A stretch of 64,000 nt of DNA, from assembly GCA_002457145.1 (NCBI GenBank), contig NTJP01000005.1, forward strand, positions 36,000 through 99,999, given 5' to 3'. Made by a program: the position numbers and the translations under genes. The notes under the pieces were generated by a model, which saw nothing but the letters and a program-made list of their open reading frames with translations, was not told the DNA's origin and did no database searches. Positions 12,634-36,147 of the stretch are shown here, one piece after another. The DNA is from Marine Group II euryarchaeote MED-G38 (GTDB taxonomy: Archaea; Thermoplasmatota; Poseidoniia; Poseidoniales; Thalassarchaeaceae). The stretch's first letter is position 1, and every line of letters starts with the position of its first letter.

Positions 12634-13035
12634 ATGAGTAATGTTGAAGTAGATCATATAGGAATAGCCACGGAGTCTATAAAACATAGTAGTGTATTTT
12701 GGGAGTGTTTAGGATTCACTAGTTCGGGGGAAGAAATAGTAGAGGAACAGGGCGTAAAGATTAGATTTCTTACTGGAAAACAAGGTTCAAAGATAGAATT
12801 ACTAGAGCCTCTAAAAGAAGATACTCCGATAGGAAAATTCATTAGAAATAGAGGCCCAGGAATACAACAATTAGCAATTAAAGTAGTTGATATAAATAAA
12901 ATTGTTTTAGAATTAAAAAAGTCAGGTATAAGAATAATTAATGAAAAACCAAGTATAGGTGCAAATGGGAAACTAATCTCATTTATTCACCCTTCCTCTA
13001 CTGGAGGAGTCCTGGTAGAATTAATTCAAGATTAA
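12634..13035 (+). CDS. mce: Methylmalonyl-CoA epimerase
   Basis: VDHIGIA, EQGVKI, IELLEP and FIHPSSTGGVLVEL; abuts the mutase gene. Confidence 0.93.
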   Translation: MSNVEVDHIGIATESIKHSSVFWECLGFTSSGEEIVEEQGVKIRFLTGKQGSKIELLEPLKEDTPIGKFIRNRGPGIQQLAIKVVDINKIVLELKKSGIRIINEKPSIGANGKLISFIHPSSTGGVLVELIQD

Positions 13036-13074
13036 ATTAACAATAATCAAAAGTAAAAGACACTGGGCCGTATT

Positions 13075-13374
13075 ATGGAAACACTAATATGTCGTTTTGA
13101 AAAATTAGAAAATATCAAATCTGAAGTATTGGATAATGAAATTATGTTTCTGGCTGATACCTTAGAGATGTTAAGAATAACAGATGAAATATCTAACGAT
13201 GCATTCTTAGATGCTGGTATGATACAAGGTGGATTATCGATAATATCTAATCTATTATCTCAAGGCCTTAATCCAGAAGATGTTCGAAACCAAATAAATA
13301 GATTAAAACAAAAAAGTATTGCATTATCAAAAACTTATCCAGAATTAGATAAATTGATTGAAGAAAGAAGATAA
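13075..13374 (+). CDS. Hypothetical helical protein (99 aa)
   Basis: ORF filling the gap; no motif recognised. Confidence 0.7.
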   Translation: METLICRFEKLENIKSEVLDNEIMFLADTLEMLRITDEISNDAFLDAGMIQGGLSIISNLLSQGLNPEDVRNQINRLKQKSIALSKTYPELDKLIEERR

Positions 13375-13414
13375 TACTTAGGTAATATTCAGGTAATACT
13401 TGAGTAATATTTAA
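13372..13414 (+). promoter_or_regulatory. Four 11-bp-period direct repeats; candidate RHH operator
   Basis: TAATACTTAGG / TAATATTCAGG / TAATACTTGAG / TAATATTTAA, ending about 25 bp upstream of the RHH gene start. Confidence 0.6.
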
Positions 13415-13438
13415 TAATAAAATCTAGTTCCAATAATT

Positions 13439-13612
13439 ATGCCTAAAGTTAGTTTAGATATGCCTCAACAAATTATTGAGGACCTAAGAAAACATGTTGG
13501 AGACGATAGGAAATATGTAAGTTTGGCGGATGCCATTAGAACAGGTTGTAGAAAATTGTTAGATCAATTGGATGAAATTGACGCACGTCATGGGAGGATT
13601 GAGAATGAATAA
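13439..13612 (+). CDS. Ribbon-helix-helix (CopG/Arc-like) regulator (57 aa, not in ORF track)
   Basis: MPKVSLDMPQQIIEDLRKHVGDDRKYVSLADAIRTGCRKLLDQLDEIDARHGRIENE. Alternating beta strand, then two helices with the Y.S..DAIR motif. Its stop overlaps the folE start. Confidence 0.85.
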   Translation: MPKVSLDMPQQIIEDLRKHVGDDRKYVSLADAIRTGCRKLLDQLDEIDARHGRIENE

Positions 13613-14180
13613 TATAGGACGAAAAGAAGCTGAATCTGCAATTAAGACTTTACTGAAATACTTAGAAGATGACTTTAATAGAGAAGGACTAAAAGAAACT
13701 CCTAAAAGAGTCATAGATTCATTTGATGAGATATTTGCTGGTTACCAGCAACGACCATCAGAGGTTTTAGCATCAACGTTTAATGCAGAAGGTTACGATG
13801 GAATCGTTCTTCTGAGAGATATTGAATTTTATTCTACATGTGAACATCATTTACAACCATTTAGCGGTCGAGCACATATTGCTTACATACCCACAGATAG
13901 AATTGTTGGGATCAGTAAATTAGCAAGGATTGTAGAATTATACGCGAGAAGATTACAGAATCAAGAAAGAATAACAATATCTATTGTAGATGATATTGTT
14001 GAAAATTTAAATCCATTAGGAGCAGGGGTGATATTAGAAGCAAGACACGGATGTATGCAATGTCGTGGCGTATCCAAACAAAATGCTGTTATGACAACCA
14101 GTGCTATGAGAGGGGTATTTTTCGAAGATTCTGGGGCCCGTTCTGAATTAATGCAATTAATCAGGAGTAGGGAACTGTGA
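13605..14180 (+). CDS. folE: GTP cyclohydrolase I (type IA)
   Basis: REGLKETPKRV, STCEHHLQPF, GISKLAR, RRLQNQER and HGCMQCRGV. ATG 13605 follows GGAGG. Confidence 0.96.
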   Translation: MNNIGRKEAESAIKTLLKYLEDDFNREGLKETPKRVIDSFDEIFAGYQQRPSEVLASTFNAEGYDGIVLLRDIEFYSTCEHHLQPFSGRAHIAYIPTDRIVGISKLARIVELYARRLQNQERITISIVDDIVENLNPLGAGVILEARHGCMQCRGVSKQNAVMTTSAMRGVFFEDSGARSELMQLIRSREL

Positions 14181-14773
14181 GCACCTACCCCATTGTTGAG
14201 ATATTTCACTCAGTTCAAGGTGAAGCATTTCATACTGGGGTTCCACATGTATTTATCAGATTTGGTAACTGTAATTTAAGATGTGAATGGTGTGATACAG
14301 ACTTTCTAACATTTCATGAAATGTCGTTAGAACAAATAATCAATCAAGTAGTATCATACAATTGTAAAAGAGTTATTTTTACAGGTGGAGAACCTTGTAT
14401 GCAGGATTTGAATACAATAGGTAAAGAATTAAAGAAATATGATATTCATCTCTCTGTCGAAACCAACGGAACTATAAGAGTCCCAAATATCATAGATTGG
14501 ATTTGCGTCTCTCCAAAAGATCAAATTTATCCAAATGTGAATATTGAACAACGTACTGGAGACGAATTAAAGGTTGTTTATTGTGGACAAGATCTTTCAA
14601 TTTATGATGATATTAAAAAAGGATTCAAACATCATTACATACAACCTTGTTACATAGAGAACGATAGTATTGAATCGAATGGAAGAAGTTTTAGTATAGT
14701 TGAAAAAGTGGTAAAGTCTAATCCGGGATGGAGACTATCATTACAAACTCATAAATGGATGGGAGTTGATTGA
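14177..14773 (+). CDS. queE: 7-carboxy-7-deazaguanine synthase (radical SAM)
   Basis: EIFHSVQGE, FIRFGNCNLRCEWCDT, TGGEP, ETNG, VSPK and WRLSLQTHK. Confidence 0.95.
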   Translation: MSTYPIVEIFHSVQGEAFHTGVPHVFIRFGNCNLRCEWCDTDFLTFHEMSLEQIINQVVSYNCKRVIFTGGEPCMQDLNTIGKELKKYDIHLSVETNGTIRVPNIIDWICVSPKDQIYPNVNIEQRTGDELKVVYCGQDLSIYDDIKKGFKHHYIQPCYIENDSIESNGRSFSIVEKVVKSNPGWRLSLQTHKWMGVD

Positions 14774-15862
14774 ATGAGAGTAGTTATGGCATTAAGCGGA
14801 GGAATGGATTCTACAGGGCTATTACTACGTCTTTTATCAGATGGATATAAAGTGACATGTTTAATATATGATTATGGTCAAAAGCATATTATAGAAATTG
14901 AAAGGGCTCTTCAGAATTTAACTTATATAAATAATAACGGGATCAAAGTAGACCATAAAGTAGTAAATCTATCTAGTGTAATGGGATTATTTCATTCATC
15001 ATTAATTAAAAATAATGAAGAAATTCCTGAAGGCCACTATGAGGAAGAACAAATGAAATCAACAGTTGTGCCAAATAGGAATGCGATTTTCGCCTCAATT
15101 TTGTATGGTTATGCGTTGAGTATTGGATTAAAAGAAGATACTAATGTAAAAATAGCATTAGGAGTTCACTCAGGAGACCACGTTATATATCCAGATTGCA
15201 GACCAGAGTTTTATGAGTTATTAGAACAAGCCTTTGCAAAAGGCAATTGGAACTCCGAAAAAGTTTCTTTGCACTTGCCTTATATTGATGGAAATAAAGA
15301 AACAATATTAAGGGATTCTATCAATTCATGTAGAAAATTAAGACTTGATTTTGATACTGTTTTTGCTAATACGAATACCTCTTATAACCCTGATTCTAAT
15401 GGTAGATCTTCGGGCACTAGTGGTGCCGATATTGAAAGAATACTAGCATTCTATTCTATTGGTAAGAAAGACCCAGTGGAATATGTAAAGCCATGGGAAA
15501 ATGTATTATCTGAAGCTTTAAAAACTAAATTAAGATATAATGTAATGAAAGAAAATGGAACCGAGCAGCCATTCACAGGTGAGTATGATAAACACTTCAA
15601 AGAAGGGGTTTATACCTGTTATGATTGTGGTAAGAAATTATTTTCATCTAAATCTAAATTTGATTCCGGATGTGGCTGGCCAGCATTTTCTGAAGAATTT
15701 GATAATGCAGGTATAATAAAAATAAATGATAATTCCTATGGAATGAATAGAATTGAAGTAAGATGTAGTGGATGTGAATCACATTTAGGCCATCTTTTCC
15801 ATGAATCAAAAGGTCCAAGATATTGCATAAATTCTATATGTTTAAAATTCGAGGGAAAGTAA
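14774..15862 (+). CDS. queC: 7-cyano-7-deazaguanine synthase fused to C-terminal methionine-R-sulfoxide reductase (QueC::MsrB)
   Basis: N-terminal part has SGGMDST, YGQKH, TVVPNRN and YPDCRPEF. From about 15530: GTEQPFTGEY, CYDC, KFDSGCGWPAF, EVRCSGCESHLGHLF and RYCINS. Confidence 0.92.
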   Translation: MRVVMALSGGMDSTGLLLRLLSDGYKVTCLIYDYGQKHIIEIERALQNLTYINNNGIKVDHKVVNLSSVMGLFHSSLIKNNEEIPEGHYEEEQMKSTVVPNRNAIFASILYGYALSIGLKEDTNVKIALGVHSGDHVIYPDCRPEFYELLEQAFAKGNWNSEKVSLHLPYIDGNKETILRDSINSCRKLRLDFDTVFANTNTSYNPDSNGRSSGTSGADIERILAFYSIGKKDPVEYVKPWENVLSEALKTKLRYNVMKENGTEQPFTGEYDKHFKEGVYTCYDCGKKLFSSKSKFDSGCGWPAFSEEFDNAGIIKINDNSYGMNRIEVRCSGCESHLGHLFHESKGPRYCINSICLKFEGK

Positions 15863-16318
15863 ATGGTAACTAAAATAATGAGATGGGTAGAAACTGATAC
15901 AGGGCATAGAGTTCCTAATCATAAAAGTAAATGTAGACATTTTCATGGCCATAGATATAGATGGGAGGCCGTTATTGAGGGTGATGTTGTTAGTCAAAAA
16001 GGTGTTTCTGATGAAGGTATGTTAATGGATTTTTCAGATATTTCAATTATTCTTAATACGGAGATACACGACATAGTAGATCATTCATTCTTAGTTTATG
16101 AGAATGATTTGGAGGCGCTTAAAGCACTAGAAATATTGGAACCGGGACATAGAACCTTGGTATTACCATTCATCCCAACAGCTGAAAACCTAGCCAGATG
16201 GGCTTTTGAAAAAGTTGAGAAACATATTAAAAGTTCGTATCAAAACAAGTTAAGGTTAGTTTCTTTTAATGTTAGAGAAACCCCCAAATCATGGGCTAGT
16301 TGGACTCCTGATCTTTAG
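15863..16318 (+). CDS. queD: 6-carboxytetrahydropterin synthase
   Basis: GHRVPNHKSKCRHFHGHRY, GMLMDF, PTAENLA and ETP. Confidence 0.93.
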   Translation: MVTKIMRWVETDTGHRVPNHKSKCRHFHGHRYRWEAVIEGDVVSQKGVSDEGMLMDFSDISIILNTEIHDIVDHSFLVYENDLEALKALEILEPGHRTLVLPFIPTAENLARWAFEKVEKHIKSSYQNKLRLVSFNVRETPKSWASWTPDL

Positions 16319-17048
16319 TAAATGACTTATTTGCACTTTTAATTACTCCTAAAATACGATGTATTTCATCGTCTTTAGGTAGACCTCTTAAGATTACTCT
16401 AAATAGCGTTTCTTCAATACCTTTCTTTGAATGAGATTTTACAGGGAGTACTTGTGATAATTGAAAAATTTCTTCTCTTAATTGCTTTCTTAGGTCAGGA
16501 GATAAAATTCTGTCTGTAGCAATATTATCAGCATTCTGAAACCATTCATAGCATATTATTGAGACTGCATGGCTCAAATTCATTATAGGATATCCTTCCC
16601 ATGTAGGAATTGATAGTAGAATATCACATTTTTGCAATTCTTCATTTAATAAACCGATACCTTCTGGACCAAAAATTAATGCTATTTTATTATCACTTTT
16701 TTTTAAATTATTGGATAGTTCTTTGGGGTCGAGAAAATGTCTAAAAGATATTTTACTGCCAAATTCTCTTTTACCTGAAGTACCAACCAATAAAGAACAA
16801 TCTTTGCTTGCACTTGGAATGTCATCAAAGAATGATGTATTATCTAAGACACTTTGAGCGTGTTTAGCCCTATTTCTGGTTTCATTTGACCAAGATTTAG
16901 AATTTCCTATGATACGAAGATCTGTTACACCAAAATTTAACATTGAACGTGCAACTGCGCCAATATTTCCATCAAATTGTGGTCTTACTAGTATTATACA
17001 CAATTTATTCCCATATTCAGGAAGTGGAACTTCAAGCCTTTCACCCAT
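16296..17048 (-). CDS. trmJ: SPOUT tRNA methyltransferase, TrmJ family
   Basis: ILVRPQFDGNIGAVARSMLNFG, ALIFGPEGIGLLNEEL and YPIMNLSHAV. Confidence 0.9.
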   Translation of the reverse strand: MGERLEVPLPEYGNKLCIILVRPQFDGNIGAVARSMLNFGVTDLRIIGNSKSWSNETRNRAKHAQSVLDNTSFFDDIPSASKDCSLLVGTSGKREFGSKISFRHFLDPKELSNNLKKSDNKIALIFGPEGIGLLNEELQKCDILLSIPTWEGYPIMNLSHAVSIICYEWFQNADNIATDRILSPDLRKQLREEIFQLSQVLPVKSHSKKGIEETLFRVILRGLPKDDEIHRILGVIKSANKSFTKDQESN

Positions 17049-35046: not shown

Positions 35047-36147
35047 TCACTTATGTTTGTATCCTACTGCCTCGGAAATACTACTAAAGCCTTCTTCGAT
35101 ACGTTTCTCTTTAATCCCTTTAACAATTGTAGATACAACAGATGGTCCTTGAAAAACTAAGGATGAATATAATTGTATTAGAGAAGCTCCGGATGTTATT
35201 GAAGACCACGCGGTTTCTGGAGATTCTATTCCTCCAACTCCAATGATGGGGATTTTCCCATGAGTATGATTAAAAATTAATTCTATTACTTCCTTTGATC
35301 TATTATGAAGTGGCCTTCCTGATAGGCCGCCTTCTTCTGAAAAAATACGTCTAGATTGGGCATTAGTAGGATTAGGTTTTACTACAGTAGTATTTGTTGC
35401 CACAAAACCATCTATATGATTTCTAGTTGCAACATTAAGAGAATCTAATATCTGATCATTTGTCCTGTCGGGAGATAATTTCAATAATATAGGTTTATGT
35501 TCATTCATGTGGCGTATGTGGTTGCATTCTTTTAGGATAGAATTGAGATAAGTTTCACCTTGAAGATCTCGTAAGTTAGGCGTATTAGGGGATGATACGT
35601 TTAATACAAAAAAATCAGCATAATCCCATAGAATTTTCAACGTTTCGGAATAATCATTTGGGGAGTCTGTATTTGACACTTTACTAGACCTCCCAATATT
35701 AGCAGCAATTGGTATATTGGGCCAATTATTAGATAATTTACGTGCAAGTAATTTATCTTTAATTGCCAAGGCCCCGGGATTATTAAGTCCCATTCTATTT
35801 ACCAATGCATTTTCTTTATTTGCCCTAAACATCCTTGGTTTTGGATTACCTTCTTGAGGGAATCTAGTTATCCCCCCATACTCCCCCCAGGAGAAGCCTA
35901 AGGCTGGCCAAGAGGATAATGCATCCGCCCCTTTATCGAATCCAGCTGCCAAACCTAAAGGGTGTTGAAATGACGTATTGAAAACATCTATTGGTTCTGG
36001 TGATGCCGCATATGCAGAATTTAGAATTTTTTGTCCGATATTTTTTTGACCGAATTTAGTGAGTAAATTAATACTCATTTTATGAGACTTTTCTGAACTA
36101 AATCCTCTGAGTAGCGGAAATATAAGAGTTCTGTAAGGCAGACCCAT
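35047..36147 (-). CDS. pyrD: Quinone-dependent dihydroorotate dehydrogenase (class 2)
   Basis: PLGLAAGFDK, QEGNPKPRMFR, NRMGLNNPG, NVSSPNTPNLR, GGLSG and IIGVGGI. Confidence 0.95.
   Translation of the reverse strand: MGLPYRTLIFPLLRGFSSEKSHKMSINLLTKFGQKNIGQKILNSAYAASPEPIDVFNTSFQHPLGLAAGFDKGADALSSWPALGFSWGEYGGITRFPQEGNPKPRMFRANKENALVNRMGLNNPGALAIKDKLLARKLSNNWPNIPIAANIGRSSKVSNTDSPNDYSETLKILWDYADFFVLNVSSPNTPNLRDLQGETYLNSILKECNHIRHMNEHKPILLKLSPDRTNDQILDSLNVATRNHIDGFVATNTTVVKPNPTNAQSRRIFSEEGGLSGRPLHNRSKEVIELIFNHTHGKIPIIGVGGIESPETAWSSITSGASLIQLYSSLVFQGPSVVSTIVKGIKEKRIEEGFSSISEAVGYKHK

Follow-up and report, generated by a model that had tools for sequence, protein, structure and literature searches.

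Which factor controls the supply of the 7-deazaguanine base preQ0 in marine archaea of the order Poseidoniales? The question is raised by a stretch of 64,000 nucleotides from Marine Group II euryarchaeote MED-G38 (positions 36,000 to 99,999 of contig NTJP01000005.1, assembly GCA_002457145.1; hereafter the window, whose coordinates are used throughout), in which an array of four phased repeats and an unannotated gene for a 57-amino-acid (aa) ribbon-helix-helix (RHH) protein stand directly before folE, queE, queC::msrB and queD. Our reading, drawn from sequence comparison, is that this gene probably encodes a dedicated archaeal regulator, one that represses preQ0 synthesis and uptake from an operator array lying over the core promoter and that probably responds to preQ0.

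The array (13369..13412, not assigned to a strand) consists of four palindromic boxes with the cores ATAATAC at 13371, GTAATAT at 13382, GTAATAC at 13393 and GTAATAT at 13404, each a predicted site for one RHH dimer. The original prediction had described four repeats at 13372, 13383, 13394 and 13405 with an exact 11-bp period, which proved correct; the unit is better described as a palindrome whose core RTAWTAY starts at -68, -57, -46 and -35 relative to the ATG of the RHH gene, with a consensus of approximately AGTAWTACT in 29 Poseidoniales loci. With a symmetric 11-bp matrix trained on 29 other Poseidoniales loci, the single boxes score 9.3, 10.0, 11.2 and 10.6 bits. Their sum (41.1 bits) is the maximum of the genome (1.37 Mb, 75% complete), where the runner-up reaches 11.6 bits and 20 block shuffles peak at 3.4-23.8 bits, while the three-box sum (31.8 bits) also ranks first genome-wide, with a runner-up of 16.4 bits. 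Chance is ruled out for this array, and it is the only one that the matrix scan found in this genome. Since close relatives were present in the training set, 25 held-out loci were tested; 23 of them attain at least 10 bits, so the boxes are kept upstream of orthologues, and in 24 of the 25 the locus-wide maximum for a triple falls within 120 bp before the RHH gene. In the order as a whole the boxes are conserved at -57/-46/-35. Another site in this genome was considered, the best other promoter pair (C17:1362, 15.3 bits), in front of a gene whose product presumably resembles the ribosome maturation factor SBDS; it was rejected because a congener scores 11.6 bits and four others score below zero.

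The last box runs into a TATA-like element, TTTAATAA (13410..13417, + strand, 29 nt before the RHH ATG), which places the position of the B recognition element (BRE) under that box. The columns past the last box are a conserved TTATA in the 29 relatives, and TATA-like words show a small genome-wide peak at -31 to -29 from ATG; the position of the element suggests a leaderless transcript or one with a very short leader. An Rfam scan of 12900-16500 returned one chance match (E 2.9) and no riboswitch. Contigs from the seawater RNA runs of one study contain pieces of all five genes and are silent on start, strand and level. The first box also holds the stop codon of an upstream open reading frame of 99 aa (13075-13374), which is without a family match and lies upstream of the RHH gene in only part of the family; one RNA contig stops at 13374, which is too little for a transcript-end call.

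The RHH gene itself (13439..13612, + strand) had been proposed as a gene missing from the annotation, and it is real: it occurs as a single copy in 55 of the 61 genomes of the order, its identity by codon position over 40 orthologues is 0.76/0.88/0.45, with the third position much the most variable, and its product is modelled with an RHH fold. The protein shows the strand residues K3, S5 and D7 (residue 7 being D or E in the family), an invariant loop with G21 and K25, and a C-terminal part with D48, G52 and R53. The Pfam scan gave no RHH call for the window protein itself; the homologues P0026, P0037, P0139 and P0244 pass the RHH_1 cut-off, and alignment of the family with CdrS by hhalign gives a probability of 96.5 (E 9.5e-10, 41 columns). 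A first monomer model from a shallow alignment gave no useful fold match, a PDB sequence search with the protein gave no match, and Foldseek with the second model returned RHH chains only at E 3-10. This second model, built from 68 sequences, has a predicted local distance difference test score of 90.5, and its top structural matches are RHH chains with modest Z of 5 to 6, such as 8u12 (Z 6.1, root-mean-square deviation (rmsd) 1.3 over 48 residues), PutA52 (Z 5.4, rmsd 1.5 over 44), SvtR, NikR, Arc and Omega. By sequence pattern and modelled fold, the protein belongs to the RHH superfamily. A profile search found 132 representatives, including a second, more distant group; the family is a separate one and unnamed, with only RHH/CopG labels in the databases. 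Among 16 longer forms, 5 are apparent fusions of the types RHH::FolE and RHH::Vut_1; these resemble frameshift errors in long-read calls, some of them ending in garbled sequence, and were taken solely as signs of adjacency. No viral copies were found in IMG/VR with the Poseidoniales patterns, nor in GenBank phages.

Gene order ties the regulator to the pathway. Within Poseidoniales, folE is directly behind the RHH gene in 54 of the 54 genomes examined (55 have an RHH match), and likewise in one genome of the sister group, so that the synteny suspected from the window alone is borne out. Among the genomes lacking RHH, QueC is likewise unmatched in 4 of 5 from the sister group and in 4 of 5 Poseidoniales, the fifth of which stops at a contig break. 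The loci L084, L085 and L072 contain extra DNA inside the operon, with approximately 1.3 kb separating folE from queE in two of these genomes and approximately 0.55 kb separating queE from queC in the other.

The most telling evidence comes from beyond Poseidoniales; in Halobacteriota, regulator and target can be unlinked. A genome scan gave at least 579 loci, and the 80 best, which were retained, include Methanosarcinaceae, halophiles, Archaeoglobus, Altiarchaeota and one member of Hadarchaeota. In Methanosarcinaceae the RHH gene is not next to the que genes and no array precedes it (58 loci, maximum 5.0 bits), while at the unlinked queC the Poseidoniales matrix puts the best triple just upstream in 5 of 5 cases (29.5, 23.4, 23.2, 23.0 and 10.4 bits). 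The array was not seen at Methanosarcina yhhQ promoters (0 of 4). A strict box pattern was also tried on 41 Methanosarcinaceae genomes and set aside, as it matched in 33 of them and just 12 of the 30 loci laid out were at queC, the others including simple repeats. In a sample of 121 Halobacteriota genomes (46 with RHH, 97 with QueC), the 1.5 kb in front of queC contain a triple of at least 10 bits in 31 of 38 cases where the genome has RHH, versus 1 of 59 where it does not, and with wrong spacings of 8, 9, 13 or 14 bp that score is attained in only 1 of the 38. In the sole RHH-less genome with an array (G285) the promoter resembles that of Methanosarcina, and the assembly may be incomplete; G283 and G284, two genomes from the Methanosarcinaceae sample, have neither RHH nor an array at queC. 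The RHH gene is found within 400 bp upstream of queC in 16 of the 46 RHH genomes. The proposal of a protein-based switch for 7-deazaguanine synthesis is thus supported by synteny, by the boxes and by the lack of an Rfam riboswitch, while its autoregulation does not hold in general, as all 58 of the mostly Methanosarcinaceae RHH loci are without an array.

The same family also points to uptake. In the RHH genomes without a QueC match, yhhQ is directly behind RHH in 7 of 8, and the four such yhhQ genes that were scanned all pass TIGR00697, the queuosine precursor transporter model. Transport of preQ0 and preQ1 by the YhhQ family was shown in Escherichia coli (PMC11130926). In Halorubrum (L157-L176) a site of two boxes lies immediately ahead of the RHH start, and the divergent yhhQ/queD promoter carries another array. 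In the Methanosarcinaceae loci L177-L180 and L198-L224 a conserved gene of 185-193 aa, presumably of the DUF366 kind, is found between queC and queE under the same array. One record labelled Saprospiraceae bacterium (L126) carries RHH and neighbours that match Methanococcoides loci, and it is probably misbinned.

In Altiarchaeota, RHH is present in 33 of 61 genomes, and the 20 loci that were fetched lead either to queD (19) or to yhhQ (1), 17 of them with an array of at least 10 bits; in Hadarchaeota, 1 of 61 genomes has it. The enzymes vary by lineage (FolE or MptA; a QueC that is 24% identical to Methanosarcina QueC), and across three phyla the regulator and the box remain constant while enzymes and gene order change. 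GC-rich halophiles retain the AT-rich boxes. As judged from gene content, the thread common to all contexts is preQ0 supply, not guanosine triphosphate (GTP) cyclohydrolase or folate. The gene, the fold, the boxes, and the co-occurrence of boxes with regulator and preQ0 genes in the three phyla are established computationally. A dpdA-like gene lies directly upstream of RHH at L174 (Halobacteriales; NF041059 above cut-off) and at L164 and L375 (Hadarchaeota), with folE-queD-queE-queC, or yhhQ and a primase-like gene, behind it; these loci are possibly mobile DNA-modification islands that carry the regulator.

How would such a protein act on the array? RHH proteins are generally expected to place one dimer on each palindrome and to cooperate at one-turn spacing, and here one dimer would sit on each of three to five boxes one helical turn apart, so that the dimers would align on one DNA face and bind cooperatively. 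That the RHH protein binds these boxes is, in our judgement, highly probable. The array would cover the core promoter, meaning the BRE and the TATA edge in this genome and the region from TATA to the start site in most Halobacteriota and Altiarchaeota, and bound protein would then block loading of transcription factor B (TFB) and TATA-binding protein (TBP), or of the polymerase. Repressed targets would be folE or mptA, queD, queE and queC for synthesis or yhhQ for uptake, and in Poseidoniales the RHH gene, as the first of the operon, would repress its own expression too.

The sign of the control was judged from the TATA positions of 86 arrays with a strict pattern. A TATA-like word is present at the upstream edge only in 12 of the 31 arrays from Halobacteriota and in 10 of the 17 from Altiarchaeota, and never downstream only, and many of these arrays reach the start codon, which argues for repression in both groups. 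In Poseidoniales, the word is downstream only in 15 of 38 loci and upstream only in 1 of 38, a layout resembling that of the activator RbkR, and it is from here that the best competing explanation starts. In Poseidoniales the RHH could be an activator: bound at the distal boxes, its dimers would bring TBP/TFB to a weak promoter, with the proximal "box" being mostly BRE; the central base of that box is A in 27 of 29 loci, compared with about half in the other boxes, which is what a BRE would require. PMC5397151 interpreted RbkR sites as activating when they lay 1-12 nt upstream of promoter elements, and the CdrS sites reported in PMC8406309 are mostly 41-110 nt upstream of the start. However, the BRE position is covered by the proximal box, the array slides startward in L057, L066, L067, L070 and L072, which is incompatible with a fixed activator geometry, and in Halobacteriota and Altiarchaeota it lies over or behind TATA. 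Because the array is over BRE in Poseidoniales and slides startward in several loci, we take it as repression by occlusion; repression in this genome is likely, and activation is improbable.

As the regulon comprises both synthesis and uptake, the signal is likely the product. By analogy with S-adenosylmethionine (SAM) and MetJ, it is most likely that repression would be tightened by preQ0, or by a compound shortly before it in the pathway, bound to the conserved loop and the C-terminal helix. Outside the DNA-binding core, the residues H19, G21, K25, D45, D48, R50, G52 and R53 are kept across 68 sequences, with H19 and H51 nearly invariant. Their conservation extends to copies with no co-directional gene behind them, so their importance is at the protein level, and they are candidates for a ligand pocket or for dimer-dimer contact. 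That the RHH protein directly binds a 7-deazaguanine ligand we consider slightly short of an even chance. A different input, i.e., zinc, GTP or a partner protein such as TgtA on the C-terminal helix, would alter only this part of the scheme. FolE and QueD use zinc, H19 and H51 would also suit such an input, there is no ligand domain, and the top structural matches include antitoxin RHH domains; antitoxin RHH proteins bind their toxins and so offer a model for partner-protein input. Still, we regard such an input as unlikely, since every target found serves preQ0 synthesis or is the preQ0 transporter, and this genome has a single array; for a zinc or GTP sensor, metal uptake or purine gene targets would be expected. 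No single pathway enzyme is common to all contexts, QueC not being found in the yhhQ-only genomes.

Among known regulators, one of the closest is aCcr1 of Sulfolobales (NF053762), likewise a stand-alone small RHH protein with nearly the same 9-bp palindrome. It binds AGTATTA according to electrophoretic mobility shift assays and mutagenesis (PMC9976892), and the aCcr1-box A(T/G)G(A)TA(G)A(T/G)TACN is described as a palindrome of 9 bp located downstream of TATA and ahead of the start codon (PMC9976878), from where aCcr1 represses. The box consensus here is of the same AGTAWTACN type, for what are predicted sites. As portrayed in those papers, the aCcr1 regulon is global and concerns the cell cycle, each promoter having one or two boxes, whereas here there are three to five in strict 11-bp phase and at preQ0 genes only. 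The NF053762 model (cut-off 60 bits) found no match among 24 Poseidoniales members, and distant homologues score 17-27 bits. By sequence the closest named family is CdrS, a haloarchaeal RHH protein (NF058555, cut-off 100 bits), for which the window protein scores 19.4 bits and homologues score up to 31.7. CdrS lacks the HVGD..KF loop and the D..RHGR tail of this family, and its gene stands directly before ftsZ2, while folE follows here in all 54 genomes. The CdrS study reports 18 sites by chromatin immunoprecipitation, and its main text does not mention queC (PMC8406309).

One could therefore imagine the Poseidoniales protein as the counterpart of CdrS or aCcr1, with many single-box targets among which the que operon is one, or is just a chance neighbour; the homology with CdrS, the near-identity of the motif with that of aCcr1 and the lack of a separate CdrS match in this genome or in genome G038 would fit. 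We find this very unlikely, because both family scores are far below the cut-offs, a halophile (G377) has a true cdrS-ftsZ pair plus the RHH family at a separate locus, strand residue 7 is D or E and not R, the context is of preQ0 genes in three phyla, and the other promoter candidate in this genome is not kept beyond the genus. The idea that the boxes are bound by another factor, or are promoter by-products in a background where AT-rich words are common, with the RHH gene as a passenger, can hardly be right, given that boxes and RHH are present or absent together even when unlinked, that the phase is a strict 11 bp according to the wrong-spacing controls, and that GC-rich halophiles keep the boxes. 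NikR was rejected (the protein has 57 aa, matches are limited to the RHH part, and none of the 16 longer forms is annotated with the C-terminal nickel-binding domain), as was a type II antitoxin of the ParD/TacA kind, since the downstream gene is folE, queC, queD or yhhQ and not a toxin.

Several observations weigh against a dedicated preQ0 repressor, and they are gathered here. The presence of RHH is patchy: it is unmatched in 75 of 121 Halobacteriota, and in Thermoplasmatota outside the order it is almost absent (1 of 8 sister-group genomes and one marginal match). Of the 38 RHH genomes of Halobacteriota, 7 have no 10-bit array at queC, and because the genomes are kin, the Fisher and rank p-values overstate the association and were given no weight. 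Of the RHH-yhhQ promoters in QueC-less genomes just 1 of 7 reaches 10 bits (range -12.6 to 11.1). Stand-alone RHH copies exist at L340, L392, L394 and on plasmid H26, and at L354 there is a preQ0 operon without an array despite an RHH gene in the genome. The strict pattern finds no TATA on either side of 44 of the 86 arrays, the TATA layout in Poseidoniales is close to that of the activator RbkR, and the protein has no recognised ligand-binding domain. The genome samples came from Thermoplasmatota, Halobacteriota, Altiarchaeota and Hadarchaeota, and this limited range of phyla also counts on this side.

The logic that we propose has a working model in MetJ. This bacterial RHH repressor controls a methionine synthesis and uptake regulon from tandem palindromic boxes in response to the pathway product; it differs in its 8-bp boxes, its size of approximately 100 residues and its corepressor SAM, and the family scans showed no sequence match to it. 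Bacterial preQ1 riboswitches act through leader RNA on que synthesis genes and precursor transporters; the target logic is the same here, with no Rfam match and probably no room for a leader. RbkR is similarly an archaeal protein regulator of synthesis and transport genes where bacteria use a riboswitch; it is described as a winged-helix protein with a kinase domain and a proposed activator, in contrast to a 57-aa RHH protein with no enzyme domain (PMC5397151).

The genes behind the regulator (all on the + strand) were assigned by Pfam and TIGRFAM scans, which bear out the enzyme identities first proposed. A Shine-Dalgarno-like GGGAGG (13592..13597) inside the RHH gene end may serve folE (13605..14180), a bacterial-type GTP cyclohydrolase I of 191 aa (PF01227, E 3.8e-68; TIGR00063 above cut-off). 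It is followed by queE (14177..14773), a radical-SAM 7-carboxy-7-deazaguanine synthase of 198 aa (PF04055; TIGR04508, E 1.2e-39, below cut-off), by the queC::msrB fusion (14774..15862; 362 aa with QueC at approximately 1-240 and MsrB at approximately 247-360; PF06508, PF01641) and by queD (15863..16318), a 6-carboxytetrahydropterin synthase of 151 aa (PF01242, E 9.5e-27; TIGR03367, E 8.5e-22, below cut-off). All four junctions overlap or abut as had been claimed (ATGAATAA, GTGA, TGA/ATG and TAA/ATG). FolE, QueE, QueC and QueD perform the four steps from GTP to preQ0 (PMC5699537), and this preQ0 would feed archaeosine. Elsewhere in the genome TgtA passes TIGR00432 and an ArcS-like gene has E 2e-70, yet is under the cut-off; with both present, the end product is most likely archaeosine. 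In Haloferax volcanii, queC and queE mutants were without archaeosine when the medium was defined, and it was proposed that rich medium allows salvage (PMC3017900).

The Poseidoniales QueC (14774-15493 in the window; L056-L095) has TSY..P....G.SSG.SG.D in 40 of 40 loci where its Methanosarcina counterpart has SCY......CGECESC, and this replacement of the C-terminal cysteine motif suggests a zinc-free form, perhaps of bacterial origin; among phage proteins it is closest to the QueC of a Flavobacterium phage, at 42%. In the 40 Poseidoniales loci, msrB is fused to queC in 20, is a separate gene between queC and queD in 12 and was not seen in 8, and the queC-msrB junction of the window is spanned by one RNA contig without gaps. 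The MsrB domain (15512-15862) retains GCGWP and RYCINS and was not seen at the operon in other phyla. Convergent with queD, and overlapping its end, is a gene for a SpoU-family RNA methyltransferase (TrmJ-like; 16296-17048, - strand), a pairing kept in most Poseidoniales loci.

In the literature searched, outside of which lie most subscription journals, regulon databases and supplements, there is no description of an archaeal RHH regulator of preQ0 genes, nor of the control of archaeosine or preQ0 supply in archaea. New here are the ties to preQ0 supply in trans, through the transporter and across phyla (Halobacteriota and Altiarchaeota). As a joint proposal, which we offer tentatively and with some doubt, the 57-residue protein may itself sense 7-deazaguanine and so be the protein equivalent of the preQ1 riboswitch, its preQ0 pocket being formed by the H19-G21-K25 loop and the D45/D48/R50/H51/G52/R53 tail. 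It may be an old archaeal regulator whose role was kept through enzyme replacement, controlling archaeosine supply for tRNA and, beside dpdA, the supply for DNA modification, and it may have flipped its sign in Poseidoniales by a shift of the array across TATA.

Poseidoniales are hard to grow, but copies are found in the cultivable Methanosarcina, Methanococcoides, Methanolobus and Halorubrum, so the proposal is testable at once. If preQ0 sensing is true, the family would provide a very small protein that senses a 7-deazaguanine base, of use as a biosensor, and a marker for further preQ0 transporters and dpdA islands. For archaea, the finding puts a name to a candidate, defines its operator exactly and predicts a small regulon across three phyla; it supports archaeal yhhQ genes as preQ0 importers, and it suggests that a protein does here the switching that in many bacteria is done by RNA.

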